Source of the DNA: Balanoglossus misakiensis
Lineage: Eukaryota > Animalia > Hemichordata
Reading direction: 5' to 3'
NCBI GenBank assembly: GCA_040954595.2
Contig: CM082577.2
Span: 15,507,903-15,571,902, forward strand
Length of the DNA stretch: 64,000 nucleotides
The notes below the pieces were generated by a model. The model saw nothing but the letters and a program-made list of their open reading frames with translations. It was not told the origin of the DNA and ran no database searches. Positions 36,001 to 64,000 of the stretch are shown piece after piece (within the stretch, counting starts at the first letter, position 1; each line of letters begins with the position of its first letter). A program made the position numbers and the translations under genes.

Positions 36001-39000
36001 CTTTAACCCTGTTTCAAATTAGAGTACTTTCTGCAATTTCAAGACAGATCTTACGTGCCATTGGAGAGCTCCATTGACTGGTCATTCATACTGTTTTCAT
36101 TCATTCATTGCGGCATCAATATATTTTATCTATTCTAGCCAAAGAGCTTGGCACCTGTTGAAATGAACTCATCTGCTGTGGGCCAGTTTATTGGTGGCAG
36201 TTGAGCTGAGGAGAGCACCTTCCTTCCCGGCACGCCACCAAGTAAAGTTCCACGCCGCCCACCACAGATGCCAGCATTCATTCATGCGAGTGAGTGTAAT
36301 TGCAAATTTGCCTATTCTAGATCTGTAATGGAAATGGAGAAAGTACCTTATATTTTCTGTAAAATAGACATTTAATTGGCAAGCCGTCCTGCATCAATTA
36401 TTAATTGTGTACATGCACTAAAGCGCCCTCACTGCTGGGTGTGTTGTATGGTCTTTAACCCTGTTTCAAATTAGAGTACTTTCTGCAATTTCAAGACAGA
36501 TCTTACGTGCCATTGGAGAGCTCCATTGACTGGTCATTCATACTGTTTTCATTCATTCATTGCGGCATCAATATATTTTATCTATTCTAGCCAAAGAGCT
36601 TGGCACCTGTTGAAATGAACTCATCTGCTGTGGGCCAGTTTATTGGTGGCAGTTGAGCTGAGGAGAGCACCTTCCTTCCCGGCACGCCACCAAGTAAAGT
36701 TCCACGCCGCCCACCACAGATGCCAGCATTCATTCATGCGAGTGAGTGTAATTGCAAATTTGCCTATTCTAGATCTGTAATGGAAATGGAGAAAGTACCT
36801 TATATTTTCTGTAAAATAGACATTTAATTGGCAAGCCGTCCTGCATCAATTATTAATTGTGTACATGCACTAAAGCGCCCTCACTGCTGGGTGTGTTGTA
36901 TGGTCTTTAACCCTGTTTCAAATTAGAGTACTTTCTGCAATTTCAAGACAGATCTTACGTGCCATTGGAGAGCTCCATTGACTGGTCATTCATACTGTTT
37001 TCATTCATTCATTGCGGCATCAATATATTTTATCTATTCTAGCCAAAGAGCTTGGCACCTGTTGAAATGAACTCATCTGCTGTGGGCCAGTTTATTGGTG
37101 GCAGTTGAGCTGAGGAGAGCACCTTCCTTCCCGGCACGCCACCAAGTAAAGTTCCACGCCGCCCACCACAGATGCCAGCATTCATTCATGCGAGTGAGTG
37201 TAATTGCAAATTTGCCTATTCTAGATCTGTAATGGAAATGGAGAAAGTACCTTATATTTTCTGTAAAATAGACATTTAATTGGCAAGCCGTCCTGCATCA
37301 ATTATTAATTGTGTACATGCACTAAAGCGCCCTCACTGCTGGGTGTGTTGTATGGTCTTTAACCCTGTTTCAAATTAGAGTACTTTCTGCAATTTCAAGA
37401 CAGATCTTACGTGCCATTGGAGAGCTCCATTGACTGGTCATTCATACTGTTTTCATTCATTCATTGCGGCATCAATATATTTTATCTATTCTAGCCAAAG
37501 AGCTTGGCACCTGTTGAAATGAACTCATCTGCTGTGGGCCAGTTTATTGGTGGCAGTTGAGCTGAGGAGAGCACCTTCTTTCCCGGCACGCCACCAAGTA
37601 AAGTTCCACGCCGCCCACCACAGATGCCAGCATTCATTCATGCGAGTGAGTGTAATTGCAAATTTGCCTATTTACGTGCCATTGGAGAGCTCCATTGACT
37701 GGTCATTCATACTGTTTTCATTCATTCATTGCGGCATCAATATATTTTATCTATTCTAGCCAAAGAGCTTGGCACCTGTTGAAATGAACTCATCTGCTGT
37801 GGGCCAGTTTATTGGTGGCAGTTGAGCTGAGGAGAGCACCTTCCTTCCCGGCACGCCACCAAGTAAAGTTCCACGCCGCCCACCACAGATGCCAGCATTC
37901 ATTCATGCGAGTGAGTGTAATTGCAAATTTGCCTATTCTAGATCTGTAATGGAAATGGAGAAAGTACCTTATATTTTCTGTAAAATAGACATTTAATTGG
38001 CAAGCCGTCCTGCATCAATTATTAATTGTGTACATGCACTAAAGCGCCCTCACTGCTGGGTGTGTTGTATGGTCTTTAACCCTGTTTCAAATTAGAGTAC
38101 TTTCTGCAATTTCAAGACAGATCTTACGTGCCATTGGAGAGCTCCATTGACTGGTCATTCATACTGTTTTCATTCATTCATTGCGGCATCAATATATTTT
38201 ATCTATTCTAGCCAAAGAGCTTGGCACCTGTTGAAATGAACTCATCTGCTGTGGGCCAGTTTATTGGTGGCAGTTGAGCTGAGGAGAGCACCTTCCTTCC
38301 CGGCACGCCACCAAGTAAAGTTCCACGCCGCCCACCACAGATGCCAGCATTCATTCATGCGAGTGAGTGTAATTGCAAATTTGCCTATTCTAGAATTCTT
38401 ACGTGCCATTGGAGAGCTCCATTGACTGGTCATTCATACTGTTTTCATTCATTCATTGCGGCATCAATATATTTTATCTATTCTAGCCAAAGAGCTTGGC
38501 ACCTGTTGAAATGAACTCATCTGCTGTGGGCCAGTTTATTGGTGGCAGTTGAGCTGAGGAGAGCACCTTCCTTCCCGGCACGCCACCAAGTAAAGTTCCA
38601 CGCCGCCCACCACAGATGCCAGCATTCATTCATGCGAGTGAGTGTAATTGCAAATTTGCCTATTCTAGATCTGTAATGGAAATGGAGAAAGTACCTTATA
38701 TTTTCTGTAAAATAGACATTTAATTGGCAAGCCGTCCTGCATCAATTATTAATTGTGTACATGCACTAAAGCGCCCTCACTGCTGGGTGTGTTGTATGGT
38801 CTTTAACCCTGTTTCAAATTAGAGTACTTTCTGCAATTTCAAGACAGATCTTACGTGCCATTGGAGAGCTCCATTGACTGGTCATTCATACTGTTTTCAT
38901 TCATTCATTGCGGCATCAATATATTTTATCTATTCTAGCCAAAGAGCTTGGCACCTGTTGAAATGAACTCATCTGCTGTGGGCCAGTTTATTGGTGGCAG

Positions 39001-42000
39001 TTGAGCTGAGGAGAGCACCTTCTTTCCCGGCACGCCACCAAGTAAAGTTCCACGCCGCCCACCACAGATGCCAGCATTCATTCATGCGAGTGAGTGTAAT
39101 TGCAAATTTGCCTATTCTAGAATCTTACGTGCCATTGGAGAGCTCCATTGACTGGTCATTCATACTGTTTTCATTCATTCATTGCGGCATCAATATATTT
39201 TATCTATTCTAGCCAAAGAGCTTGGCACCTGTTGAAATGAACTCATCTGCTGTGGGCCAGTTTATTGGTGGCAGTTGAGCTGAGGAGAGCACCTTCTTTC
39301 CCGGCACGCCACCAAGTAAAGTTCCACGCCGCCCACCACAGATGCCAGCATTCATTCATGCGAGTGAGTGTAATTGCAAATTTGCCTATTTACGTGCCAT
39401 TGGAGAGCTCCATTGACTGGTCATTCATACTGTTTTCATTCATTCATTGCGGCATCAATATATTTTATCTATTCTAGCCAAAGAGCTTGGCACCTGTTGA
39501 AATGAACTCATCTGCTGTGGGCCAGTTTATTGGTGGCAGTTGAGCTGAGGAGAGCACCTTCCTTCCCGGCACGCCACCAAGTAAAGTTCCACGCCGCCCA
39601 CCACAGATGCCAGCATTCATTCATGCGAGTGAGTGTAATTGCAAATTTGCCTATTCTAGATCTGTAATGGAAATGGAGAAAGTACCTTATATTTTCTGTA
39701 AAATAGACATTTAATTGGCAAGCCGTCCTGCATCAATTATTAATTGTGTACATGCACTAAAGCGCCCTCACTGCTGGGTGTGTTGTATGGTCTTTAACCC
39801 TGTTTCAAATTAGAGTACTTTCTGCAATTTCAAGACAGATCTTACGTGCCATTGGAGAGCTCCATTGACTGGTCATTCATACTGTTTTCATTCATTCATT
39901 GCGGCATCAATATATTTTATCTATTCTAGCCAAAGAGCTTGGCACCTGTTGAAATGAACTCATCTGCTGTGGGCCAGTTTATTGGTGGCAGTTGAGCTGA
40001 GGAGAGCACCTTCTTTCCCGGCACGCCACCAAGTAAAGTTCCACGCCGCCCACCACAGATGCCAGCATTCATTCATGCGAGTGAGTGTAATTGCAAATTT
40101 GCCTATTCTAGAATCTTACGTGCCATTGGAGAGCTCCATTGACTGGTCATTCATACTGTTTTCATTCATTCATTGCGGCATCAATATATTTTATCTATTC
40201 TAGCCAAAGAGCTTGGCACCTGTTGAAATGAACTCATCTGCTGTGGGCCAGTTTATTGGTGGCAGTTGAGCTGAGGAGAGCACCTTCTTTCCCGGCACGC
40301 CACCAAGTAAAGTTCCACGCCGCCCACCACAGATGCCAGCATTCATTCATGCGAGTGAGTGTAATTGCAAATTTGCCTATTCTAGAATCTTACGTGCCAT
40401 TGGAGAGCTCCATTGACTGGTCATTCATACTGTTTTCATTCATTCATTGCGGCATCAATATATTTTATCTATTCTAGCCAAAGAGCTTGGCACCTGTTGA
40501 AATGAACTCATCTGCTGTGGGCCAGTTTATTGGTGGCAGTTGAGCTGAGGAGAGCACCTTCCTTCCCGGCACGCCACCAAGTAAAGTTCCACGCCGCCCA
40601 CCACAGATGCCAGCATTCATTCATGCGAGTGAGTGTAATTGCAAATTTGCCTATTCTAGAATCTTACGTGCCATTGGAGAGCTCCATTGACTGGTCATTC
40701 ATACTGTTTTCATTCATTCATTGCGGCATCAATATATTTTATCTATTCTAGCCAAAGAGCTTGGCACCTGTTGAAATGAACTCATCTGCTGTGGGCCAGT
40801 TTATTGGTGGCAGTTGAGCTGAGGAGAGCACCTTCCTTCCCGGCACGCCACCAAGTAAAGTTCCACGCCGCCCACCACAGATGCCAGCATTCATTCATGC
40901 GAGTGAGTGTAATTGCAAATTTGCCTATTCTAGAATCTTACGTGCCATTGGAGAGCTCCATTGACTGGTCATTCATACTGTTTTCATTCATTCATTGCGG
41001 CATCAATATATTTTATCTATTCTAGCCGAAGAGCTTGGCACCTGTTGAAATGAACTCATCTGCTGTGGGCCAGTTTATTGGTGGCAGTTGAGCTGAGGAG
41101 AGCACCTTCCTTCCCGGCACGCCACCAAGTAAAGTTCCACGCCGCCCACCACAGATGCCAGCATTCATTCATGCGAGTGAGTGTAATTGCAAATTTGCCT
41201 ATTCTAGATCTGTAATGGAAATGGAGAAAGTACCTTATATTTTCTGTAAAATAGACATTTAATTGGCAAGCCGTCCTGCATCAATTATTAATTGTGTACA
41301 TGCACTAAAGCGCCCTCACTGCTGGGTGTGTTGTATGGTCTTTAACCCTGTTTCAAATTAGAGTACTTTCTGCAATTTCAAGACAGATCTTACGTGCCAT
41401 TGGAGAGCTCCATTGACTGGTCATTCATACTGTTTTCATTCATTCATTGCGGCATCAATATATTTTATCTATTCTAGCCAAAGAGCTTGGCACCTGTTGA
41501 AATGAACTCATCTGCTGTGGGCCAGTTTATTGGTGGCAGTTGAGCTGAGGAGAGCACCTTCCTTCCCGGCACGCCACCAAGTAAAGTTCCACGCCGCCCA
41601 CCACAGATGCCAGCATTCATTCATGCGAGTGAGTGTAATTGCAAATTTGCCTATTCTAGATTCTTACGTGCCATTGGAGAGCTCCATTGACTGGTCATTC
41701 ATACTGTTTTCATTCATTCATTGCGGCATCAATATATTTTATCTATTCTAGCCAAAGAGCTTGGCACCTGTTGAAATGAACTCATCTGCTGTGGGCCAGT
41801 TTATTGGTGGCAGTTGAGCTGAGGAGAGCACCTTCCTTCCCGGCACGCCACCAAGTAAAGTTCCACGCCGCCCACCACAGATGCCAGCATTCATTCATGC
41901 GAGTGAGTGTAATTGCAAATTTGCCTATTCTAGAATCTTACGTGCCATTGGAGAGCTCCATTGACTGGTCATTCATACTGTTTTCATTCATTCATTGCGG

Positions 42001-45000
42001 CATCAATATATTTTATCTATTCTAGCCAAAGAGCTTGGCACCTGTTGAAATGAACTCATCTGCTGTGGGCCAGTTTATTGGTGGCAGTTGAGCTGAGGAG
42101 AGCACCTTCCTTCCCGGCACGCCACCAAGTAAAGTTCCACGCCGCCCACCACAGATGCCAGCATTCATTCATGCGAGTGAGTGTAATTGCAAATTTGCCT
42201 ATTCTAGATCTGTAATGGAAATGGAGAAAGTACCTTATATTTTCTGTAAAATAGACATTTAATTGGCAAGCCGTCCTGCATCAATTATTAATTGTGTACA
42301 TGCACTAAAGCGCCCTCACTGCTGGGTGTGTTGTATGGTCTTTAACCCTGTTTCAAATTAGAGTACTTTCTGCAATTTCAAGACAGATCTTACGTGCCAT
42401 TGGAGAGCTCCATTGACTGGTCATTCATACTGTTTTCATTCATTCATTGCGGCATCAATATATTTTATCTATTCTAGCCAAAGAGCTTGGCACCTGTTGA
42501 AATGAACTCATCTGCTGTGGGCCAGTTTATTGGTGGCAGTTGAGCTGAGGAGAGCACCTTCCTTCCCGGCACGCCACCAAGTAAAGTTCCACGCCGCCCA
42601 CCACAGATGCCAGCATTCATTCATGCGAGTGAGTGTAATTGCAAATTTGCCTATTCTAGATCTGTAATGGAAATGGAGAAAGTACCTTATATTTTCTGTA
42701 AAATAGACATTTAATTGGCAAGCCGTCCTGCATCAATTATTAATTGTGTACATGCACTAAAGCGCCCTCACTGCTGGGTGTGTTGTATGGTCTTTAACCC
42801 TGTTTCAAATTAGAGTACTTTCTGCAATTTCAAGACAGATCTTACGTGCCATTGGAGAGCTCCATTGACTGGTCATTCATACTGTTTTCATTCATTCATT
42901 GCGGCATCAATATATTTTATCTATTCTAGCCAAAGAGCTTGGCACCTGTTGAAATGAACTCATCTGCTGTGGGCCAGTTTATTGGTGGCAGTTGAGCTGA
43001 GGAGAGCACCTTCCTTCCCGGCACGCCACCAAGTAAAGTTCCACGCCGCCCACCACAGATGCCAGCATTCATTCATGCGAGTGAGTGTAATTGCAAATTT
43101 GCCTATTCTAGATCTGTAATGGAAATGGAGAAAGTACCTTATATTTTCTGTAAAATAGACATTTAATTGGCAAGCCGTCCTGCATCAATTATTAATTGTG
43201 TACATGCACTAAAGCGCCCTCACTGCTGGGTGTGTTGTATGGTCTTTAACCCTGTTTCAAATTAGAGTACTTTCTGCAATTTCAAGACAGATCTTACGTG
43301 CCATTGGAGAGCTCCATTGACTGGTCATTCATACTGTTTTCATTCATTCATTGCGGCATCAATATATTTTATCTATTCTAGCCAAAGAGCTTGGCACCTG
43401 TTGAAATGAACTCATCTGCTGTGGGCCAGTTTATTGGTGGCAGTTGAGCTGAGGAGAGCACCTTCCTTCCCGGCACGCCACCAAGTAAAGTTCCACGCCG
43501 CCCACCACAGATGCCAGCATTCATTCATGCGAGTGAGTGTAATTGCAAATTTGCCTATTCTAGATCTGTAATGGAAATGGAGAAAGTACCTTATATTTTC
43601 TGTAAAATAGACATTTAATTGGCAAGCCGTCCTGCATCAATTATTAATTGTGTACATGCACTAAAGCGCCCTCACTGCTGGGTGTGTTGTATGGTCTTTA
43701 ACCCTGTTTCAAATTAGAGTACTTTCTGCAATTTCAAGACAGATCTTACGTGCCATTGGAGAGCTCCATTGACTGGTCATTCATACTGTTTTCATTCATT
43801 CATTGCGGCATCAATATATTTTATCTATTCTAGCCAAAGAGCTTGGCACCTGTTGAAATGAACTCATCTGCTGTGGGCCAGTTTATTGGTGGCAGTTGAG
43901 CTGAGGAGAGCACCTTCCTTCCCGGCACGCCACCAAGTAAAGTTCCACGCCGCCCACCACAGATGCCAGCATTCATTCATGCGAGTGAGTGTAATTGCAA
44001 ATTTGCCTATTCTAGATCTGTAATGGAAATGGAGAAAGTACCTTATATTTTCTGTAAAATAGACATTTAATTGGCAAGCCGTCCTGCATCAATTATTAAT
44101 TGTGTACATGCACTAAAGCGCCCTCACTGCTGGGTGTGTTGTATGGTCTTTAACCCTGTTTCAAATTAGAGTACTTTCTGCAATTTCAAGACAGATCTTA
44201 CGTGCCATTGGAGAGCTCCATTGACTGGTCATTCATACTGTTTTCATTCATTCATTGCGGCATCAATATATTTTATCTATTCTAGCCAAAGAGCTTGGCA
44301 CCTGTTGAAATGAACTCATCTGCTGTGGGCCAGTTTATTGGTGGCAGTTGAGCTGAGGAGAGCACCTTCCTTCCCGGCACGCCACCAAGTAAAGTTCCAC
44401 GCCGCCCACCACAGATGCCAGCATTCATTCATGCGAGTGAGTGTAATTGCAAATTTGCCTATTCTAGATCTGTAATGGAAATGGAGAAAGTACCTTATAT
44501 TTTCTGTAAAATAGACATTTAATTGGCAAGCCGTCCTGCATCAATTATTAATTGTGTACATGCACTAAAGCGCCCTCACTGCTGGGTGTGTTGTATGGTC
44601 TTTAACCCTGTTTCAAATTAGAGTACTTTCTGCAATTTCAAGACAGATCTTACGTGCCATTGGAGAGCTCCATTGACTGGTCATTCATACTGTTTTCATT
44701 CATTCATTGCGGCATCAATATATTTTATCTATTCTAGCCAAAGAGCTTGGCACCTGTTGAAATGAACTCATCTGCTGTGGGCCAGTTTATTGGTGGCAGT
44801 TGAGCTGAGGAGAGCACCTTCTTTCCCGGCACGCCACCAAGTAAAGTTCCACGCCGCCCACCACAGATGCCAGCATTCATTCATGCGAGTGAGTGTAATT
44901 GCAAATTTGCCTATTTACGTGCCATTGGAGAGCTCCATTGACTGGTCATTCATACTGTTTTCATTCATTCATTGCGGCATCAATATATTTTATCTATTCT

Positions 45001-45570
45001 AGCCAAAGAGCTTGGCACCTGTTGAAATGAACTCATCTGCTGTGGGCCAGTTTATTGGTGGCAGTTGAGCTGAGGAGAGCACCTTCCTTCCCGGCACGCC
45101 ACCAAGTAAAGTTCCACGCCGCCCACCACAGATGCCAGCATTCATTCATGCGAGTGAGTGTAATTGCAAATTTGCCTATTCTAGATCTGTAATGGAAATG
45201 GAGAAAGTACCTTATATTTTCTGTAAAATAGACATTTAATTGGCAAGCCGTCCTGCATCAATTATTAATTGTGTACATGCACTAAAGCGCCCTCACTGCT
45301 GGGTGTGTTGTATGGTCTTTAACCCTGTTTCAAATTAGAGTACTTTCTGCAATTTCAAGACAGATCTTACGTGCCATTGGAGAGCTCCATTGACTGGTCA
45401 TTCATACTGTTTTCATTCATTCATTGCGGCATCAATATATTTTATCTATTCTAGCCAAAGAGCTTGGCACCTGTTGAAATGAACTCATCTGCTGTGGGCC
45501 AGTTTATTGGTGGCAGTTGAGCTGAGGAGAGCACCTTCCTTCCCGGCACGCCACCAAGTAAAGTTCCACG
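1..45570. repeat. Tandem satellite array, left arm: about 128 units of 265/274/275/452 bp arranged in higher-order repeats
   Basis: Near-identical monomers recur at spacings of 274 (218, 492), 452 (1766, 2218), 265 (4123 to 4388) and 275 (3122 to 3397). The array stops mid-unit at ...aagtaaagttccacg (45570). Confidence 0.99.
894..1078. mobile_element. MITE-like insertion (first of about 75 full copies), always at the same site of the monomer
   Basis: Left end agatctgtaatggaaatggagaaagtac (894-921) matches the reverse complement of the right end (1051-1078; agatctgtcttgaaattgcagaaagtac) at 23/28 positions. AGATCT lies at both ends, so the TSD could be AT, GATC or AGATCT. No ORF. Confidence 0.85.
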
Positions 45571-47363
45571 TGCATTCCTGGCCCTGGTTTTATTTATGTT
45601 TACAGACAATATTGCATTTTTGTACAAGTATTTTAATCAACTATAAATTTTGAATGTGTCATTTACCTGAACCGGTCATGTTGACCAGAATGATACATTT
45701 CTGCCTTCACTCACCCTATAAATATGTGATTGAGACATAGGTCATTTGCATAAGCTAACATACCAGAAAGTAAGCATATCTGTTGTTTTCCCTGTGTCAC
45801 TGCCATCAAAGTAAAAATTAGACGTTGTGTAGAGCAAACTCCAATTTTTTGTTCTCAATAAACATGGATGAATTACATAGAATGTGTTTGTTGTTTACAG
45901 TCTTTAAATGACACATTAGATTATGCACTTTACAAAACGTTTCTGAGAAACAAGTGACTAACTAGTTTCTTTCCACTGTGGCCAACGTGGTTCACTGTTT
46001 GTGTCAGAATCTCTCTGTTTTGCAAGGATTTTGAAATCATAGTGGTGACATGCATAGTGAAAATCAGCTACTTTCAAATGTCCGTCATGTTCATGCTGTA
46101 ATTGAATTTTCAAAGCTGGGCTGGCGTGTTTTTTCTTATTTACATAAGTATCACACTTTATACATGTATCTTCATGGGGTTTTTTGAGTCCCGTATTTAG
46201 GTCCTCTCTCACAATTTTACGAAATATCGTATAACTGACAGTTGTTCTTCCCAGAAGAGATTGGTTGGTTATGAACTCTCGGTGTAACTGCGATATACTG
46301 TGGGCCGGCGCCAGGTACGGTTTAAATCGAGGATTCCTGCAGTAGTGAGATTCTACAATTCTGTGCCTGCGTACGTGTTCAGTGATATCAGTCAGCAAAT
46401 TTGGATTGAGTTTCCGACGATGCCCTTTGTGTCGGCCCCTTGCATCTGGCATCAGACCAGTAAAGTTCCATGTGCATTCCTGGCCCTGGTTTTATTTATG
46501 TTTACAGACAATATTGCATTTTTGTACAAGTATTTTAATCAACTATAAATTTTGAATGTGTCATTTACCTGAACCGGTCATGTTGACCAGAATGATACAT
46601 TTCTGCCTTCACTCACCCTATAAATATGTGATTGAGACATAGGTCATTTGCATAAGCTAACATACCAGAAAGTAAGCATATCTGATGTTTTCCCTGTGTC
46701 ACTGCCATCAAAGTAAAAATTAGACGTTGTGTAGAGCAAACTCCAATTTTTTGTTCTCAATAAACATGGATGAATTACATAGAATGTGTTTGTTGTTTAC
46801 AGTCTTTAAATGACACATTAGATTATGCACTTTACAAAACGTTTCTGAGAAACAAGTGACTAACTAGTTTCTTTCCACTGTGGCCAACGTGGTTCACTGT
46901 TTGTGTCAGAATCTCTCTGTTTTGCAAGGATTTTGAAATCATAGTGGTGACATGCATAGTGAAAATCAGCTACTTTCAAATGTCCGTCATGTTCATGCTG
47001 TAATTGAATTTTCAAAGCTGGGCTGGCGTGTTTTTTCTTATTTACATAAGTATCACACTTTATACATGTATCTTCATGGGGTTTTCTGAGTCCCGTATTT
47101 AGGTCCTCTCTCACAATTTTACGAAATATCGTATAACTGACAGTTGTTCTTCCCAGAAGAGATTGGTTGGTTATGAACTCTCGGTGTAACTGCGATATAC
47201 TGTGGTCCGGTGCCAGGTACGGTTTAAATCGAGGATTCCTGCAGTAGTGAGATTCTACAATTCTGTGCCTGCGTACGTGTTCAGTGATATCAGTCAGCAA
47301 ATTTGGATTGAGTTTCCGACGATGCCCTTTGTGTCGGCCCCTTGCATCTGGCATCAGACCAGT
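45558..47363. repeat. 902-bp direct tandem duplication of the 3' half and downstream region of the minus-strand transposase gene
   Basis: Stop codons at 45958 and 46860 are 902 bp apart. Both copies start agtaaagttcca(c/t)gtgcattcc. About 5 substitutions are visible between copies. Confidence 0.95.
45958..46460 (-). pseudogene. 5'-truncated duplicate of the transposase N-terminal-half gene
   Basis: 164 aa nearly identical to the C-terminal part of ORF 46860..47822 (D>A and R>K changes). It lacks the upstream part and the promoter. Confidence 0.8.
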
Positions 47364-47816
47364 TGAACAGTGCATCATTTTGCTTAGAACGGTTCTAGTC
47401 CGCCTCTCACTAATGCCAAATAATTTCAGGAATGCATTTTTGCAGACAGTAACCGTTTCACCGCCTTCATTCACCAGGTGATAACGAACCGATTTCTTGT
47501 GTGACTTCATCTGCATATCCATCAGTTTGTAGAGCATCAAGTTCTGTTCATTATACACGCGACCATCAAAATATTTTCTCGTGGTGCCTAAAACATGCGT
47601 ACTCCCAAGCTTCCGCATACAATTCCCTTGAACGCAGGCGCATTCCAAGGAAAGACTGTCAATATCTGGAAAAGGGCGATTTTTCCTTGGTTTTTGTCTC
47701 GGACACGTCTTTTTAGAATTCCTACGTGGCTTGTTGGCTCGAGCTGACAGTTCGGTTCTGCGTTGCTGCCACACAGGAATGGGTTCCCACGCATAAGCAA
47801 CTCCCCGGCAGGCCAT
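46860..47816 (-). CDS. Transposase N-terminal half (DNA-binding / Cys-His region), Sola-like
   Basis: Motifs CxC..C, VCKNAFLKLFGISERR, DARGRH, ESHYCR..YL, VSY..FRKI, KPHEDTCIKCD and H..A..HY occur in the order seen in the N-terminal half of Sola-type transposases. ATG at 47816 has Kozak context gaccATGG (the ORF track starts at a GTG, 47822). Confidence 0.8.
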   Translation of the reverse strand: MACRGVAYAWEPIPVWQQRRTELSARANKPRRNSKKTCPRQKPRKNRPFPDIDSLSLECACVQGNCMRKLGSTHVLGTTRKYFDGRVYNEQNLMLYKLMDMQMKSHKKSVRYHLVNEGGETVTVCKNAFLKLFGISERRTRTVLSKMMHCSTGLMPDARGRHKGHRRKLNPNLLTDITEHVRRHRIVESHYCRNPRFKPYLAPDHSISQLHREFITNQSLLGRTTVSYTIFRKIVREDLNTGLRKPHEDTCIKCDTYVNKKKHASPALKIQLQHEHDGHLKVADFHYACHHYDFKILAKQRDSDTNSEPRWPQWKETS

Positions 47817-47983
47817 GGTCACAGCTGAAGTATTTGTTCAAGTACTGACTGACTAAACGCGGCATGGAACAAACGAACGAACGACTTCACGTTCGGAAAA
47901 AAAATCGTTGCGAGCTGTTGGGTGCATGCCTCTATAGTTGTCGGCAACCGTTCTTTTTTATTGCTAAACAATGCTGTCAGAGC
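47817..47983. promoter_or_regulatory. Probable bidirectional promoter between the two transposase halves
   Basis: 167 bp between two divergent Kozak-context ATGs. Inferred from position only. Confidence 0.45.
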
Positions 47984-48997
47984 ATGGAAGGTGTGGTGGA
48001 AAACGAACAGAGGTTTTGTACGACCAACGATTGGATGGTGCTACATATGGACTTCCACAAGTCATTGCCGGTTCCTAAACTCAGCTCTGAAGACTTTTAC
48101 TTTAAATCGAAATTGCAAATGAAGCTCCTTGGAATTTACAACGGGACAACGGAAAAGATGCATTGTTATGTATGGACAGAGCTCGATAGCAGAAAGTCTC
48201 CCGATGAAGTTATTACCTGTCTAAATCACTTTTTTTATAACTCGGGTGTGACCAGCAGACATGCAGTTATTTACAGCGACAACTGCCGTGCCGAATTCAA
48301 GTGTGGGAAGTTAATGTTTTACTATGACTATCTGTTACGAAAGGGCGTGTTTCGACGAATTGACTATAAAACTCTTGTGGCTGGACACACGTACTCCACC
48401 TGTGACCGAGTTTTTGCGTCCATTGAAAGGCATGCAAGTCGTTTCCAGAGTATAGAGACACCTCACGATTGGACATCTGTGATTCGAGGATCTTCTCTGA
48501 ATGGGAACATTGGAGTTACGGAGATGACTCACAGAGACTTTTTCAATTATTCTGATTTCCTGAAAAATGAGTACGTTGTGCGTTATGCAGATACAAACAA
48601 TGTAACTTTTTACTACCAAGCCATGCACTATTTTAATTTTGGAGAAGGAGAAAGGCTTGATACCGACGGCAACCTCAGAACATTTAGTCATGCAGATAAA
48701 GTTTGGGTGAGAACATCTCTAGATCCAAGCGAGACCCCGATTGTAGTCGACTTTAGAAAGAAGAAGCAGAACCGGCGTTTACAAGATTGTACGCTGAACA
48801 AACTTTATCAGGAACGTCGACCACTGGCGAGCAAAGTTTGGCGGGATCTTCAGAGTTTAGCCAAAAATTACCTGTCTCCGGAGGCAATAGAATTTTATAG
48901 GAATCTACCGCTTCAGGAGAGTAGTGGCACCTCTGCAGACCCGTACGCCTTTCATGATGATGACGACGACGATGATGATGATATGGGCGGTGGTTGA
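47984..48997 (+). CDS. Transposase catalytic half (RNase H-fold DDD), Sola-like, with acidic tail
   Basis: Motifs MDFHKSLPVP, FYFKSKL, CYVWTE..RKSPDEVITCL, SDNC, GHTYSTCDRVFASIE, IETPHDW and MTHRDF; three candidate catalytic Asp are intact. Likely start agcATGG at 47984 (alternative 47864). AATAAA overlaps the stop (48997-49002). Confidence 0.85.
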   Translation: MEGVVENEQRFCTTNDWMVLHMDFHKSLPVPKLSSEDFYFKSKLQMKLLGIYNGTTEKMHCYVWTELDSRKSPDEVITCLNHFFYNSGVTSRHAVIYSDNCRAEFKCGKLMFYYDYLLRKGVFRRIDYKTLVAGHTYSTCDRVFASIERHASRFQSIETPHDWTSVIRGSSLNGNIGVTEMTHRDFFNYSDFLKNEYVVRYADTNNVTFYYQAMHYFNFGEGERLDTDGNLRTFSHADKVWVRTSLDPSETPIVVDFRKKKQNRRLQDCTLNKLYQERRPLASKVWRDLQSLAKNYLSPEAIEFYRNLPLQESSGTSADPYAFHDDDDDDDDDMGGG

Positions 48998-49157
48998 ATA
49001 AACTGTCCTTTTCATGACGACAGTGATTTTGGATATTTGATGTGCGTGCACAGTTTATATGTAATATTTTCACACGAACGAGTTTTGACTGAATTTGATT
49101 AAAGAATGTACTCGATAATTAACAAATGTGCTGAATCGTGGTTATTATGTTGTTAAT

Positions 49158-49199
49158 TTTTGTTTGTTTGTTTGTTTGTTTGTTTGTTTGTTTGTTTGT
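49158..49199. repeat. (TTTG)n microsatellite, about 10 units
   Basis: Read directly from the sequence. Confidence 0.95.
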
Positions 49200-49329
49200 A
49201 AACAATTTCCGTTCATTCAACTGGCTACAAAGTTGGATTTTTGTACTGGGAAGCGATAAACTCGCACATCAAAACCGGGGAGACTCGATCATTTTTCCCT
49301 GCAGGTAGCCTGAAAAGCACCCGGGCAGA

Positions 49330-49405
49330 GATTACGTCATATATGGTCCACTTTAATACGAAATTATGCAAATGTGACATTTCACGGAAACGGCGTATAT
49401 AAAAG
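49330..49405 (+). promoter_or_regulatory. Putative Pol II promoter of the SET gene
   Basis: CRE-like TTACGTCA (49332), octamer ATGCAAAT (49366-49373) and TATAAAAG (49398-49405), about 95 bp upstream of the ATG at 49497. Confidence 0.55.
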
Positions 49406-49496
49406 CGACCCTGGGCTATTGTTCGGAATGCGTCATCGACGAGAGAGTGACTGATAATTCTTCTACCTCGAGTCAACCATTCTGTATATACTGAAC

Positions 49497-50834
49497 ATGG
49501 CTAGCTGGCGCAGGAAGAGACAAGGCAATGTGCGGTCTGTAATCAACGAACGGCACCGCTCAGTTCAGTGTCCCTTTCTTCAAAAGTGGATCGGTGAGCA
49601 ATTGGTATTTTCAGGTCGTTCAGAGGATGAAGTCCAGTCCAGTACTGTATTTGAGAGCTACAAATGTTGGGTTGAAAACTATTCGTCGGCGGACAATCAA
49701 GTAATGATTATGGTTACTAAAGCTCGATTTTTCAAGGTGAGAATGATCGCATTTTTCTTTCCCCCCCCCCCCCTCCCTCCCTCCCTCCCCCAAGGGACTC
49801 GTTTTCTGTCTCTTTTAAACCTGTAACTTAACGAAAAGGAAGTTTTTCACATATCTCTTCGTTGACACTATAGCAATTTGGAGCGCGGATGCTTCAAGAG
49901 AAGAGCGTTACCAAATCAAAGTCGGCCGGGGTTAATATTTATAGAGGTGTTCGTCTGAAAGCTGGTTCGCGAAGAATCTCAACGGGGAAACCTGAGCACA
50001 GTGTACTTCAGACCAGGGCAAGGGCATTTCTTGATGACGCCAGCGTGACCGTTCCGATCGAGGTAAGAATGGTGTTTTGTTTGGACTAGGACAATAGAAC
50101 GTTGCAATGAGTGTGTCAATGGGTGTCCAAGTGCAAACGTGGTCTGCTTCTGTCCACAAATGCCATTAATTTTTGGCAGGATTTATAAAATTGTCAATGA
50201 AGAATACAAAAATGAAAAACAACAGTTAATAGCAAACTGGTAGGATTGCAAGGGCTTGTAAAACGGTACACACTGTACCAGGAAGTTTGCAACACTAATG
50301 AAGAATGTATATGATATATTTAGGTGAGAACTGTTCGCGATCGCCGGGACGCAGGACGGTGCGCGTTTTCGACGAGGGATATTCAAGCCTGGGACGTCGT
50401 CTGCGAATACCGGGGCACGGTTATTAGCGTTGAAGAAGCTAGTCGGCGTGATGAGCTTTACAGGGCAGAGGGGAAACGACCACGCATGTTCCATCTCTAC
50501 ATTGGAAAGAGACACGTTGTGTGAGTGTATCACTTAGTCGAATATATGGTCATATATTGCAAAGCATCTGTCGAAATAGAAAACGTAATATTGTCTATAT
50601 TTTCCTCATTAACGCAGCATTGACGGATACGATGTCCCAGCCGGTGAAGAAAATTTAGCAGGCCTAATAAATCACAGTCAGCAGAACGCCAACTTGGTAC
50701 CGGTTCGGATCGGAGAGCGCCTGGTTTTCTTTGCAACCAGGAATCTTTGTCAGGGAGTAGAGCTTTTGTATGATTACGGTGACGGGGGTGAAGAGGATTT
50801 CTTCAGTGGTTCTCAAACTTTTCCTGAAAATTAA
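49497..50834 (+). CDS. Spliced ~280-aa protein: winged-helix-like N-terminus plus SETD8/PR-Set7-like SET domain. Exons 49497-49736, 49874-50062, 50324-50520, 50618-50834
   Basis: All introns are GT-AG and the phases (0, 0, 2) join in frame. SET motifs: GRCAFSTRDI..WDVVCEYRG, EA.RR..LY, IDG, LAGLINHS, LVFFATRNL..G.ELLYDYGD. The N-terminal pattern FLQKWI..V....VFESYKCW..FFKQF..G..IYRGVRLK resembles RFX or D5-helicase C-terminal winged helices. Confidence 0.88.
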
Positions 50835-51737
50835 GGCATTAACACATCAACGCTTCGGGGTGTCGTAACGGCGGCGCGGCGGGGGGGGGGGGGACGTGAA
50901 AATGTTTGTATCAGGAACAAAATTCCCGTGCAAATCACCTTGATCCGGGTGGGTGGACTATTCGCGACAAATGTTGAAATCATACAAAGCATTTTACTTA
51001 ATTAACCCATTTTTTTCATTTATTTGTTTACAGTTTACAACGTCATAGAGAAGTTGAACTAGAGACTGGATCAGCGTGGGTGACACCATAGTACACCAAT
51101 GTTTTCTTCAGTTTGATTCAATTGTAATTTAAAACTGAGATTGCCTAACGCTTTCCCAGATTTTTTTAACCACTGAGAAACTGTGGGTTTTTTTCTGGGT
51201 TTTGGTGCGAGGTGATCTCAGTCAGTGGTGTTAATTTAATTAATCATTTTCTTTTCCTATTTACGTCGACTGAAATGTATTTTGATAGGTGATAGTCATA
51301 CCATAAAAAAAATCTTACGGCGCGACTGCCAAAATGTACATTTATTTGTCCGTTCCAAGTTATTTTGTGTATGTGTGATGGGTGCCGGTGACTGTGCAGG
51401 GTTGATTTCCCTAGAGCGACTGTTATATTCGTTTTCCAACGATGATGAATTTACATGTTATTTGCTTGGCATTTTGACGCAGAGACACTTCTGAAAACAC
51501 AAACCTATTAATTATGCCACGGGTGTAAATTGATCACATTAAAAGAGGCTTTAGACGTTTGCCGCGAGCTCCTGGTGGGCAGAATCTTGTCAGCCCAAAT
51601 TTGACTATAAGTACATAGCCAATGATGTGACGCTCTCCCACATCCTTCGCCGCGCCTTTTCGCTGATTTACAGCATCTTGCGTAAACACTGTCATTTGAT
51701 CTTGCTTGGCAGAAGTCAACTTGCTCTATACTACATT

Positions 51738-52103
51738 ATGGCGGCCAAGCTCAACTGCATATCAGATAATGCCAAGGAGCGTTTGAGAGGCATCCTCGCC
51801 AGAAGGAGTCGCGTTTCCGGTGACTGTGTGCTCTGGACGGGTGCAGCTTGTCGAAACGGCTATGGCTCTATTACGTTCAGAGATGAGAACACTCTAACCG
51901 CCTATGTCCATCACATTGCACTCCTAATTAACGGAGTGCAATTGGTGGGCAGGCGGTTAGAGTGTTCTCATCTTTGCAACGAAAAGCTATGCATCCGCCC
52001 AGAGCACATTGTCCAGGAAACGCGACTCCTAAACATTTCACGAAAGACGTGCTTTAAATCCCCAAAAGGGGAGTGTCACCACGATCCCAGGTGCCTAAGG
52101 TGA
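51738..52103 (+). CDS. His-Me finger (His-Cys box, I-PpoI-like zinc-binding loop) endonuclease, about 121 aa
   Basis: CVLWTG...NGYG, YVHH, SHLCNEKLCIRPEHIVQE...NISRKTC...C.H.PRC is the His-Cys box pattern. First ATG is at 51738 (attATGG). Confidence 0.88.
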   Translation: MAAKLNCISDNAKERLRGILARRSRVSGDCVLWTGAACRNGYGSITFRDENTLTAYVHHIALLINGVQLVGRRLECSHLCNEKLCIRPEHIVQETRLLNISRKTCFKSPKGECHHDPRCLR

Positions 52104-53080
52104 GTAATCCTCTTCTCATTTGATATGTATTGTGTGACCCTGCAGTTGAAACGCTTTCATCAATAATTTGCGGCGCGTGGGTAATCTCGGTGTTATTGAC
52201 AATGCAGCCGGCCCAAACATTTTTAAATTAACACTGTTTCTGACTGTATTAACGAAATGTCCAATTTGCAAGTAGCCTATAGACAACCCTTTTGAATGAG
52301 TTTTGTCTCGTTGAGATTTTATACATAAGGAACAATCTAGATTTATTTTAGAAGACACTGTTCTTTTAAAACAGCTAGCATAATACAGCTAAATTTCGGA
52401 ATTTCCGGACAATTTTCGGAATTCCTTTTAAATTTGAGAAATTTTTCATCAGATATAAGTGTTACTATTTATTGGACATGTTTTTATCATTGTTTACTTT
52501 TTAAGGTCATTCTCACCCCCCCCCCCCCCAAAAAAAGCCGCTTTAGGCTTCATGTTCAGTAAAAAATCTGGAAAGTTCAGCTGAATTTTACACTGATCAC
52601 ACATTTTTGGGAAGGTCTGGCGCAAAATAAAGGATGACAAATGTAAATCTAATGTCACATTTGTAAACCTCTAAGTATTGTACACTCATTCTATTAAGTA
52701 TATGCAAATAGTACGGATAATTTTTTCGGAATGTGGAATTCCGAAATTAGTTCGGAACGTGTTAGCAGTGAAGAGATCACCACTGAGGGTTGGAAGGCCT
52801 TGCCAGAAATTAACGCGTAAAGTACGCCCTCACAGGCCATGTAAACAAGGTCAAATAAGGCCGTCTGGCAAACGAATGATTAATTCAACGCGCCATTTGA
52901 GCCGAGCTGAGTTGGTCTGAGTTGCGTATCACACAGACTTAGGCTGAATGTCAGTGGAGTAACCAGTCCGTTTTAGATTTACCAATGATGTGAATTTAAT
53001 TTCTTCACCCAGAAAAACAGAACACAACTTGTCTGCAACATGATGCTGGAGGTGACACATGACAGAGAAGTGGATCCGCG

Positions 53081-53420
53081 TTGTCAACACAGATGCCAGC
53101 ATTCAAAAGGGGAGTGCCACCTGCTAAAATCAACTCATCTGCTGTTGGCCCATTTTACCTGTGGCAACTGTTCAGAGGAGACAACGTTTATTCCGTGCAA
53201 GCCAACACGCAATGTTGGGGTCTACCTGTCAACACAGATGCAAGCATTCATGTGAGTGAGTATCAGGACTGACCTTGTATTTGCTGAATAATTCATAATG
53301 CCTATTTTAGAATTCTTAGAGGCATTTGGAGTTCATTGCCTGGTCAACCAAACTACACCCCTTAACAGCTGAAACAAAATGCGTATTGTGTTCATTCATT
53401 CATTGCATCAATATATATAG
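53081..53420 (+). repeat. Diverged copy (about 1.3 units) of the satellite monomer inside the cassette
   Basis: Colinear matches: cacagatgccagcattca, cacctgctaaaatcaactcatctgctgttggcc, gaggag, cacagatgcaagcattcatgtgagtgag, gcctattttagaattctta, ttcattcattcattgcatcaatata. Confidence 0.9.
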
Positions 53421-53723
53421 GCAACATGAGTATCAAGTAGCACTATTTGTTTACGATTGTATTCATGAAAACTTCCCACTAACAATTCCACAGTTAATAT
53501 TGAACACATTTATCCAACAAGGTCAAAAGAAAAAGGGAATCTTCTGGTTCCAAAATACGCCACAAATGTGGGTCAACATACAGTGAAATATTATGGTGCT
53601 CAAATATGCAACATATCAAATCTGTCTCATCAAAGTCATGCTTTAAAAAAGAATTGAAAAGGTATTATTTATCCATTTGACTGCTGTATTTTCAGAAGGA
53701 AAACAAACTGAATTTGGTTTTTC

Positions 53724-56700
53724 AAGTACCTTATATTTTCTGTAAAATAGACATTTAATTGGCAAGCCGTCCTGCATCAATTATTAATTGTGTACATGCA
53801 CTAAAGCGCCCTCACTGCTGGGTGTGTTGTATGGTCTTTAACCCTGTTTCAAATTAGAGTACTTTCTGCAATTTCAAGACAGATCTTACGTGCCATTGGA
53901 GAGCTCCATTGACTGGTCATTCATACTGTTTTCATTCATTCATTGCGGCATCAATATATTTTATCTATTCTAGCCAAAGAGCTTGGCACCTGTTGAAATG
54001 AACTCATCTGCTGTGGGCCAGTTTATTGGTGGCAGTTGAGCTGAGGAGAGCACCTTCCTTCCCGGCACGCCACCAAGTAAAGTTCCACGCCGCCCACCAC
54101 AGATGCCAGCATTCATTCATGCGAGTGAGTGTAATTGCAAATTTGCCTATTCTAGATCTGTAATGGAAATGGAGAAAGTACCTTATATTTTCTGTAAAAT
54201 AGACATTTAATTGGCAAGCCGTCCTGCATCAATTATTAATTGTGTACATGCACTAAAGCGCCCTCACTGCTGGGTGTGTTGTATGGTCTTTAACCCTGTT
54301 TCAAATTAGAGTACTTTCTGCAATTTCAAGACAGATCTTACGTGCCATTGGAGAGCTCCATTGACTGGTCATTCATACTGTTTTCATTCATTCATTGCGG
54401 CATCAATATATTTTATCTATTCTAGCCAAAGAGCTTGGCACCTGTTGAAATGAACTCATCTGCTGTGGGCCAGTTTATTGGTGGCAGTTGAGCTGAGGAG
54501 AGCACCTTCCTTCCCGGCACGCCACCAAGTAAAGTTCCACGCCGCCCACCACAGATGCCAGCATTCATTCATGCGAGTGAGTGTAATTGCAAATTTGCCT
54601 ATTCTAGATCTGTAATGGAAATGGAGAAAGTACCTTATATTTTCTGTAAAATAGACATTTAATTGGCAAGCCGTCCTGCATCAATTATTAATTGTGTACA
54701 TGCACTAAAGCGCCCTCACTGCTGGGTGTGTTGTATGGTCTTTAACCCTGTTTCAAATTAGAGTACTTTCTGCAATTTCAAGACAGATCTTACGTGCCAT
54801 TGGAGAGCTCCATTGACTGGTCATTCATACTGTTTTCATTCATTCATTGCGGCATCAATATATTTTATCTATTCTAGCCAAAGAGCTTGGCACCTGTTGA
54901 AATGAACTCATCTGCTGTGGGCCAGTTTATTGGTGGCAGTTGAGCTGAGGAGAGCACCTTCCTTCCCGGCACGCCACCAAGTAAAGTTCCACGCCGCCCA
55001 CCACAGATGCCAGCATTCATTCATGCGAGTGAGTGTAATTGCAAATTTGCCTATTCTAGATCTGTAATGGAAATGGAGAAAGTACCTTATATTTTCTGTA
55101 AAATAGACATTTAATTGGCAAGCCGTCCTGCATCAATTATTAATTGTGTACATGCACTAAAGCGCCCTCACTGCTGGGTGTGTTGTATGGTCTTTAACCC
55201 TGTTTCAAATTAGAGTACTTTCTGCAATTTCAAGACAGATCTTACGTGCCATTGGAGAGCTCCATTGACTGGTCATTCATACTGTTTTCATTCATTCATT
55301 GCGGCATCAATATATTTTATCTATTCTAGCCAAAGAGCTTGGCACCTGTTGAAATGAACTCATCTGCTGTGGGCCAGTTTATTGGTGGCAGTTGAGCTGA
55401 GGAGAGCACCTTCCTTCCCGGCACGCCACCAAGTAAAGTTCCACGCCGCCCACCACAGATGCCAGCATTCATTCATGCGAGTGAGTGTAATTGCAAATTT
55501 GCCTATTCTAGATTCTTACGTGCCATTGGAGAGCTCCATTGACTGGTCATTCATACTGTTTTCATTCATTCATTGCGGCATCAATATATTTTATCTATTC
55601 TAGCCAAAGAGCTTGGCACCTGTTGAAATGAACTCATCTGCTGTGGGCCAGTTTATTGGTGGCAGTTGAGCTGAGCAGAGCACCTTCCTTCCCGGCACGC
55701 CACCAAGTAAAGTTCCACGCCGCCCACCACAGATGCCAGCATTCATTCATGCGAGTGAGTGTAATTGCAAATTTGCCTATTCTAGAATCTTACGTGCCAT
55801 TGGAGAGCTCCATTGACTGGTCATTCATACTGTTTTCATTCATTCATTGCGGCATCAATATATTTTATCTATTCTAGCCAAAGAGCTTGGCACCTGTTGA
55901 AATGAACTCATCTGCTGTGGGCCAGTTTATTGGTGGCAGTTGAGCTGAGGAGAGCACCTTCCTTCCCGGCACGCCACCAAGTAAAGTTCCACGCCGCCCA
56001 CCACAGATGCCAGCATTCATTCATGCGAGTGAGTGTAATTGCAAATTTGCCTATTCTAGATCTGTAATGGAAATGGAGAAAGTACCTTATATTTTCTGTA
56101 AAATAGACATTTAATTGGCAAGCCGTCCTGCATCAATTATTAATTGTGTACATGCACTAAAGCGCCCTCACTGCTGGGTGTGTTGTATGGTCTTTAACCC
56201 TGTTTCAAATTAGAGTACTTTCTGCAATTTCAAGACAGATCTTACGTGCCATTGGAGAGCTCCATTGACTGGTCATTCATACTGTTTTCATTCATTCATT
56301 GCGGCATCAATATATTTTATCTATTCTAGCCAAAGAGCTTGGCACCTGTTGAAATGAACTCATCTGCTGTGGGCCAGTTTATTGGTGGCAGTTGAGCTGA
56401 GGAGAGCACCTTCCTTCCCGGCACGCCACCAAGTAAAGTTCCACGCCGCCCACCACAGATGCCAGCATTCATTCATGCGAGTGAGTGTAATTGCAAATTT
56501 GCCTATTCTAGATCTGTAATGGAAATGGAGAAAGTACCTTATATTTTCTGTAAAATAGACATTTAATTGGCAAGCCGTCCTGCATCAATTATTAATTGTG
56601 TACATGCACTAAAGCGCCCTCACTGCTGGGTGTGTTGTATGGTCTTTAACCCTGTTTCAAATTAGAGTACTTTCTGCAATTTCAAGACAGATCTTACGTG

Positions 56701-62700: not shown

Positions 62701-64000
62701 GATGCCAGCATTCATTCATGCGAGTGAGTGTAATTGCAAATTTGCCTATTCTAGAATCTTACGTGCCATTGGAGAGCTCCATTGACTGGTCATTCATACT
62801 GTTTTCATTCATTCATTGCGGCATCAATATATTTTATCTATTCTAGCCAAAGAGCTTGGCACCTGTTGAAATGAACTCATCTGCTGTGGGCCAGTTTATT
62901 GGTGGCAGTTGAGCTGAGGAGAGCACCTTCTTTCCCGGCACGCCACCAAGTAAAGTTCCACGCCGCCCACCACAGATGCCAGCATTCATTCATGCGAGTG
63001 AGTGTAATTGCAAATTTGCCTATTTACGTGCCATTGGAGAGCTCCATTGACTGGTCATTCATACTGTTTTCATTCATTCATTGCGGCATCAATATATTTT
63101 ATCTATTCTAGCCAAAGAGCTTGGCACCTGTTGAAATGAACTCATCTGCTGTGGGCCAGTTTATTGGTGGCAGTTGAGCTGAGGAGAGCACCTTCCTTCC
63201 CGGCACGCCACCAAGTAAAGTTCCACGCCGCCCACCACAGATGCCAGCATTCATTCATGCGAGTGAGTGTAATTGCAAATTTGCCTATTCTAGAATCTTA
63301 CGTGCCATTGGAGAGCTCCATTGACTGGTCATTCATACTGTTTTCATTCATTCATTGCGGCATCAATATATTTTATCTATTCTAGCCGAAGAGCTTGGCA
63401 CCTGTTGAAATGAACTCATCTGCTGTGGGCCAGTTTATTGGTGGCAGTTGAGCTGAGGAGAGCACCTTCCTTCCCGGCACGCCACCAAGTAAAGTTCCAC
63501 GCCGCCCACCACAGATGCCAGCATTCATTCATGCGAGTGAGTGTAATTGCAAATTTGCCTATTCTAGATCTGTAATGGAAATGGAGAAAGTACCTTATAT
63601 TTTCTGTAAAATAGACATTTAATTGGCAAGCCGTCCTGCATCAATTATTAATTGTGTACATGCACTAAAGCGCCCTCACTGCTGGGTGTGTTGTATGGTC
63701 TTTAACCCTGTTTCAAATTAGAGTACTTTCTGCAATTTCAAGACAGATCTTACGTGCCATTGGAGAGCTCCATTGACTGGTCATTCATACTGTTTTCATT
63801 CATTCATTGCGGCATCAATATATTTTATCTATTCTAGCCAAAGAGCTTGGCACCTGTTGAAATGAACTCATCTGCTGTGGGCCAGTTTATTGGTGGCAGT
63901 TGAGCTGAGGAGAGCACCTTCCTTCCCGGCACGCCACCAAGTAAAGTTCCACGCCGCCCACCACAGATGCCAGCATTCATTCATGCGAGTGAGTGTAATT
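53724..64000. repeat. Tandem satellite array, right arm (about 29 units), starting inside a MITE that lacks its left TIR
   Basis: Same monomer types and orientation as the left arm. Unit order matches the region from ~7086 at an offset of 46638. Confidence 0.99.

Follow-up and report, generated by a model that had tools for sequence, protein, structure and literature searches.

The stretch analyzed here (the window) comprises 64,000 nucleotides of the Balanoglossus misakiensis genome (assembly GCA_040954595.2, contig CM082577.2, positions 15,507,903 to 15,571,902, forward strand) and consists of an animal-type satellite array with a single interruption. This interruption, a cassette whose specific DNA spans 45571 to 53723, holds the four open genes recognized in an earlier note on this DNA: two head-to-head genes, A and B, a gene encoding a winged helix and a SET domain in four GT-AG exons, and a gene for a His-Me finger endonuclease. 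With somewhat better than even confidence, the cassette is read as an end-less copy of a lineage of multi-gene Sola-like DDD transposons with a two-protein transposase, which has been multiplied in a satellite unit of ~46.6 kb rather than by its own transposition.

Genes of the cassette and their recurrence in relatives

Gene B (47984..48997, plus strand, 337 amino acids, alternative ATG at 47864) matches DUF7869 in Pfam (E 1.4e-14) and is read as the catalytic half of the transposase. Its predicted catalytic residues D23, D99, and D141, the last two spaced by 42 residues, are invariant in all 10 aligned sequences. According to the structure model (predicted local distance difference test, pLDDT, 71), which resembles integrase and transposase cores (best Z 9.6, root-mean-square deviation 2.8, 132 aligned residues), B is predicted to have a DDE/RNase H-type fold with a DDD triad. 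An acidic Asp run at its C-terminus (window 48955-48990) is missing in the homologues.

Gene A (46860..47816, minus strand, 318 amino acids), whose start codon is separated from that of B by 167 bp, is likely the N-terminal, DNA-binding half. It has no match in Pfam, NCBIfam, or PHROG, a sequence search of the PDB gave nothing useful, and its predicted structure, taken alone, has a pLDDT of 33. The nearest Pfam-bearing cluster in a protein atlas is one of DUF7869 (573 amino acids, score 0.85, 11% of members), which is a lead only. The reading as an N-terminal half is based on the motifs ESHY and DTCxxCD, which we take to be those of long DUF7869 proteins; the label Sola-like likewise reflects a motif resemblance that we assume for the transposase. 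The transposase is likely split into two head-to-head genes, and no such arrangement, a two-gene DDE transposase with a linked winged-helix SET gene in divergent copies, would have a precedent among cut-and-paste elements of eukaryotes. At window position 47618 the contigs of two runs (X1 and X2) read G, so the window copy of A either has a Leu-to-Met change of its own or contains an assembly error there.

The SET gene (49497..50834, plus strand, 280 amino acids; exons 49497-49736, 49874-50062, 50324-50520, and 50618-50834) is predicted to encode a winged-helix histone methyltransferase. The SET domain is matched by exons 3 and 4, of which exon 4 is nearest to KMT5A among histone enzymes, and exon 3 is nearest to KMT2C/D, followed by KMT5A. 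Exon 1 is close to Pox_D5 winged-helix clusters (score 0.97), and its winged helix has no Pfam match. Upstream of the gene, an octamer at 49366 and a TATA motif at 49396 are found, with CRE-like (cAMP response element-like), octamer, and TATA motifs falling within 49334-49405. A diverged copy of the gene has 18 listed changes, 13 of which fall on third codon positions.

As for the endonuclease (51738..52103, plus strand, 121 amino acids), it is of the I-PpoI-like His-Cys box type (PF05551, E 6.7e-13), and its intact gene follows SET at a distance of 0.9 kb on the same strand. Alignment with I-PpoI matches S77, H78, H90, E94, and N99 as well as eight His/Cys ligands; the catalytic residues are H78 and N99, and the zinc sites are formed by C30, C80, C85, and H90 (C30 by family alignment only) and by C105, C113, H115, and C119. 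Across the nuclease and 17 single-domain homologues picked from 150 matches, 13 columns are invariant. A word-indexed search with the gene gave no match, and Rfam reported no group I intron around it. A TATA-like motif lies at 51606, 130 bp upstream of the nuclease ATG, and the stop codon overlaps a consensus splice donor (AG/GTGAGT, 52101-52106).

Homologues of B were sought among proteins of 207-660 amino acids. All three clusters found are B-only, with seven proteins of 304-344 amino acids that start shortly before the first catalytic strand, one of them being XP_002739486 of Saccoglossus kowalevskii (46% identity). A metagenome scan added four loci (L001-L004) with B at 34-36% identity, where the B start codon also lies shortly ahead of the first catalytic strand; their contigs are only 1.3-5.2 kb long, and the L002 and L003 contigs lack the length to show linkage. 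In L004, a homologue of A on the minus strand stands upstream of and head-to-head with B on the plus strand (E 6e-8). In L001, SET exons 1, 3, and 4 (E 1e-3, 1e-5, and 5e-5, respectively) follow one another in order on the minus strand, upstream of B and head-to-head with it, and exon 3 is followed by a GTGAGT donor, just like exon 3 in the window. The best values in 200 shuffled controls were 1e-3 for A and 3e-3 for SET, and the exon 1 match is weak on its own because a reversed control reached 0.002. No relatives were found in viral contigs and prokaryote genomes. A LYDYGD stretch in L002 (~1420-1460, 320 bp downstream of B) is not significant (E 0.62) and is not counted as SET. Short foldback elements occur upstream of B in L003 (74-174; missing in L001) and downstream of B in L002 (1233-1390).

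Since A-B and B-SET linkage recurs in divergent copies, A, B, and SET did not come together merely by chance nesting of elements, and this part of the note's interpretation is upheld. On this comparison, the transposase split and the SET link appear as family traits rather than local damage. As to conservation of gene order, which the note had proposed to check, the head-to-head A-B pair of the window recurs in L004; the order in L001 differs, with SET head-to-head with B, and A is not seen there.

The divergent layout of A and B could in principle stem from an assembly artifact or a dead inversion, that is, from local rearrangement of a one-piece transposase, as the window lies within a highly repetitive array and no single contig spans the whole cassette. 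However, L004 has the same head-to-head layout, B-only homologues are present in all clusters, and the cassette is covered by overlapping X1 and X2 contigs, each with 0-2 differences, and by near-identical pieces in run X3 of another study (depth 2). This explanation is largely refuted, and we consider it very improbable.

Whether the nuclease gene belongs to the same element is a separate matter. If only A, B, and SET constitute the element, the nuclease could have inserted separately or be left over from a different family (KolobokP, for instance), carried into the array with a junk flank. Consistent with such nesting, L001-L004 hold no His-Me gene, the right 1.3 kb of the cassette is a mosaic, and diverged His-Me copies carry other sequence upstream of 51666. 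On the other hand, the gene is intact, with the strand and spacing given above, and is accompanied by no Kolobok transposase, long terminal direct repeat (LTDR), or TTAA. In one diverged contig, SET exon 4 is joined to 51271, and diverged copies add up to similar depths at SET exon 4 (265), 51305 (268), and 52030 (293). The nesting explanation is regarded as unlikely, and the odds lean toward the His-Me gene being part of the element, a link seen in the B. misakiensis genome only.

A predicted hairpin within the nuclease coding sequence

Positions 51804..52030 (plus strand) of the nuclease gene are predicted to form a hairpin of 227 nt with 99 pairs (92 Watson-Crick and 7 G-U) in several registers. 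Its fold of −154.5 kcal/mol (z −17.3) was reached by none of 200 shuffled sequences, while the antisense strand folds with −140.6 kcal/mol, and compared with 300 synonymous recodings the z-score is −12.9. Every catalytic and zinc residue is nevertheless kept, so that one stretch of sequence clearly codes twice, for a conserved enzyme and for a 99-pair hairpin. In the stem, conserved motifs are matched either to variable segments or to one another (CVLWTGA with CIRPEH, RDENTLTA with RRLECSHL). The protein sequence by itself already reveals the symmetry (z 8.9, 12 shuffles); among 20 homologues tested out of the 150, z is at most 2.9; the hairpin is therefore lineage-specific and has shaped the amino acids. 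Because pairing occurs in several registers, it is not one inverted duplication. The central stem was also considered as an inserted foldback miniature inverted-repeat transposable element (MITE), a candidate rejected as the right arm encodes the catalytic SHLC.

Selection on the hairpin to keep the DNA-cutting protein low, either by small-RNA processing or by blocked translation, is slightly favored. The stem has one A-C mismatch versus seven G-U pairs, a weak sign of selection at the RNA level. Diverged nuclease paralogues exist in the genome, one of which has five right-arm changes, with the G-U pair at 51880 turned into A-U. Alternatively, the hairpin is a by-product at the DNA level, with template switching at a chance quasi-palindrome perfecting the arms and selection keeping only the protein. 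The predominance of Watson-Crick pairs (92/99), the similar DNA folding of both strands (−89 and −83), the lack of signal in the 20 homologues, and the conserved LWxGA and CxxPxH motifs, which form a natural seed, all suit this alternative. Against it, the presence of several registers points to more than one event, each altering the protein sequence, the fold of the sense RNA is 14 kcal/mol more stable than that of the antisense, and the paralogue change at 51880 turns G-U into A-U. The by-product explanation is deemed the less likely one, though it retains appreciable weight.

Two weaker hairpins (51046..51222, plus strand, z −3.9) are located between the SET and nuclease genes. One has a central U-rich internal loop, a possible splice acceptor precedes them near 51033, and Rfam gave no match.

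The satellite array and probable amplification of the cassette

The array left of the cassette (1..45570, plus strand) is built of monomers of 274, 275, 265, or 452 bp in a higher-order repeat of ~7.2 kb, the longest being a 274-bp monomer with a 178-bp MITE that has imperfect inverted ends. The homogeneity claimed for the array was confirmed: there are 155 monomer anchors in the window, and the mean divergence over a 260-bp core of 153 monomers is 0.15%. The right flank (53724-64000, 10,277 bp) is identical to 7086-17362, which defines a period of 46,638 bp (7086..53723, plus strand) containing 38.5 kb of satellite (106 monomers, 54 MITEs) and the cassette.

At the left junction (45570..45571) the cassette joins the satellite 65 bp ahead of the GAATTC predicted from the array phase. 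A tandem duplication of 902 bp, whose copies differ at five positions, makes up the left 1.8 kb; the first copy (45557..46458, plus strand) carries a truncated 3′ part of gene A, so that A is present a second time in truncated form. As the duplication opens with 14 bp of satellite, it postdates entry into the array. At the right junction, the sequence from 53724 onward is 100% identical to the 178-bp MITE, the rest of which extends to 53886 (53724..53886, plus strand). The earlier note had set the cassette end at 53886, which was not borne out, and had described the MITE as continuous with that end. Sequence continuity holds, but the MITE as the terminus of the element is rejected: the joint falls ~24 bp inside the MITE and is preceded by a probable long interspersed nuclear element (LINE) remnant, and it is therefore not an element terminus.

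No inverted pair that could serve as terminal inverted repeats (TIRs) was found at the cassette ends, and there is no target site duplication (TSD), including one of 4 bp, at the junctions, whose flanks are in different array phases. Because both ends are recombination joints, intact relatives may have TIRs. The window copy, being without ends, likely cannot mobilize itself, contrary to its proposed role as a self-mobilizing unit.

The right 1.3 kb is composed of three pieces. The first, at 52392..52764, is a nested non-autonomous element with inverted ends that also occurs elsewhere in the genome (loose contig ends at 52392 and 52764). It is followed by a diverged relative of the satellite monomer (53082..53416, plus strand) with an intact GAATTC at 53310, which bears out the reported presence of such a relative in the cassette (107/151 identical, 71% over 151 bp, E 5e-20) and has tandem variants elsewhere in the genome (contigs of X1 and X2; joint 53416 to 53118). 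The last piece (53475..53654, plus strand), judged by its translation, is probably the C-terminus of a LINE open reading frame 2, an identity we presume from a motif; NCBIfam and PHROG gave no match for it.

Runs X1, X2, and X4 represent one sample, which may be the source of the window, and X3 belongs to a second study. In X1, most long cassette contigs have depths of 690-815, compared with 1564 on the duplicated part; the corresponding values in X2 are 1255 and 2482. From this doubling it follows that the duplication and the satellite junction are likely common to most copies. Lone diverged contigs have depths of 20-35, which suggests roughly 20-40 cassette copies, with the reservation, which counts among the objections below, that contig depth is no copy number. 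The MITE-to-cassette depth ratio is 33, versus 54 MITEs in the 46.6-kb unit. The cassette is likely multicopy and amplified along with the array.

In the favored reading of an end-less Sola-like copy, A and B would assemble into one transposase, and the winged helix would bring the SET domain to DNA, probably that of the element itself, for histone methylation (H4K20 or H3K4). Break repair may have placed the copy in the array along with 1.3 kb of its old flank, after which it would have spread through unequal exchange between flanking satellite blocks.

Several observations weigh against this reading. The role of A as an N-terminal half depends on presumed motifs and a weak atlas lead, a word-indexed search with A gave no match, and one reversed-sequence control reached E 0.002 for A. 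The length range of the B search (207-660 amino acids) could miss fused A-B forms. The order in L001 differs, as described above, the outside copies are decayed in all but the B frame of L002, and no His-Me gene is present in any of the four short outside contigs, including the 1.5 kb downstream of SET in L001. Only 7 of the 14 changed codons in the diverged SET copy are synonymous. In the hairpin, the bias toward G-U over A-C (7 vs 1) is suggestive only, and the paralogue data cover the right arm. Finally, the copy of the flank at 7086 has satellite, and no cassette, on its left.

The five monomer classes are all told apart by a single palindrome, GAATTC, a pattern noticed after the fact. The 275-bp monomer and the old cassette monomer read GAATTC, 274a and 274b lack one central base, the 265-bp class lacks ten, and the 452-bp class has the MITE there, so that the site is kept in only 7 of the 155 monomers. 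The array phase indicates that the cassette interrupts a 275-bp monomer. I-PpoI-like nucleases cut palindromes with 4-nt overhangs, according to an excerpt of PMC9587614. The variants hint at repair scars of such a cutter, although they would also fit MITE excision footprints or slippage. That the nuclease cut the monomer GAATTC is considered doubtful. If it did, the 275-bp monomer, compared with its four variants, would be a named substrate for a transposon-borne His-Me nuclease, with a bearing on satellite growth.

A more ambitious interpretation views the cassette as an active selfish unit, in which the nuclease cuts satellite GAATTC, repair multiplies satellite and cassette units, most monomers are cut-resistant scars, and SET marks the array. 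Besides the single variable site, with GAATTC ancestral according to the diverged monomer, this interpretation is consistent with the three longest in-phase left-flank matches (7.9, 7.9, and 4.6 kb), which all run into a GAATTC monomer (~5% by chance, post hoc), and with the resemblance of the 46.6-kb unit to (LTDR-INT)n multimers in the part of PMC9587614 consulted. However, the GAATTC variants have the other origins just named, the cassette itself carries five GAATTC, one of them in monomer context, the hairpin predicts low nuclease output, and nothing links the SET protein to the satellite. Outside relatives, moreover, are without arrays: the association expected for them was not recovered in any of the four short contigs, where self-comparison gave microsatellites and inverted repeats only. 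The interpretation is accordingly rated improbable. A variant, in which a lineage with a two-chain transposase uses the satellite as its replication vehicle, would have the nuclease cut GAATTC, repair between 38-kb blocks multiply the cassette, most monomers be cut-resistant scars, and the hairpin brake the nuclease; it is given marginally less credence still.

Comparison with described elements

The comparisons with published families draw on excerpts of the cited papers. Sola transposons are defined by a DDD triad, TIRs, and 4-bp TSDs, with sizes of 2-9 kb (PMC10741241). The cassette is like Sola1-3 in having a DDD triad in an RNase H fold and in its size range, and differs by the likely split head-to-head transposase and the accessory SET and nuclease genes, as well as by the window copy having neither TIRs nor a 4-bp TSD.

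KolobokP combines a DDD/E transposase with an I-PpoI-like His-Me nuclease; its (LTDR-INT)n multimers have been attributed, as a proposal, to induced unequal crossover (Kojima and Bao 2022, PMC9587614). The cassette similarly has an I-PpoI-like His-Me nuclease beside a DDD transposase and tandem multimers between direct repeats. In contrast, B matches DUF7869 and not the Kolobok transposase, which has an insertion and C/DxxH between the second and third acidic residues, and there are neither 450/660-bp LTDRs with their own TIRs nor TTAA, the direct repeat here being 38 kb of satellite. The 452-bp monomer was rejected as a KolobokP LTDR, since it is a 274-bp monomer with an internal MITE and has no TTAA at its ends. 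The terms 'hairpin', 'satellite', and 'SET' do not occur in the main text on KolobokP (PMC9587614). The array would allow testing of the induced unequal crossover model, which was proposed but not shown for KolobokP.

A SET methyltransferase gene is also carried by the DNA transposons HarbingerS and a SET-bearing MuDR of Phytophthora (as cited in the excerpt of PMC12730594). Unlike in the cassette, where SET is fused to a D5-like winged helix, the transposases of these elements, compared by way of the citing paper, belong to a different superfamily; in Pfam, B matches neither DDE_Tnp_4 nor Plant_tran of the Harbinger type, but DUF7869 only. Homing endonucleases of the I-PpoI His-Cys box type share the catalytic His and Asn and two zinc sites with the cassette nuclease, which, in contrast to them, lies outside any group I intron (Rfam gave no match) and whose coding sequence forms a long predicted hairpin.

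A literature search, with Repbase, Dfam, and the KolobokP supplements outside its scope, gave nothing on a split Sola-like transposase, Sola with SET, or a hairpin-forming His-Me gene, and no mention of DUF7869. Likewise, nothing on this architecture appears in the excerpts of PMC4455052, PMC5751038, PMC12859917, PMC12477816, PMC3845634, and bioRxiv 10.1101/2021.09.26.461848. The cassette resembles a Sola-type transposon with KolobokP-like and HarbingerS-like cargo, is assigned to none of these families, and likely represents an uncatalogued lineage.

As for the 178-bp MITE of the satellite (window 45186-45367 and every 452-bp monomer), it can be read as having TG...CA ends with a GATC duplication, and no simple empty site was found among the array monomers. 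Judging by the traits of these families, it may be a non-autonomous Ginger-like or Sola-like element. A contig of X1 (depth 382) joins the left part of the MITE (45222) to cassette sequence at 52817, which hints at a further related repeat family.

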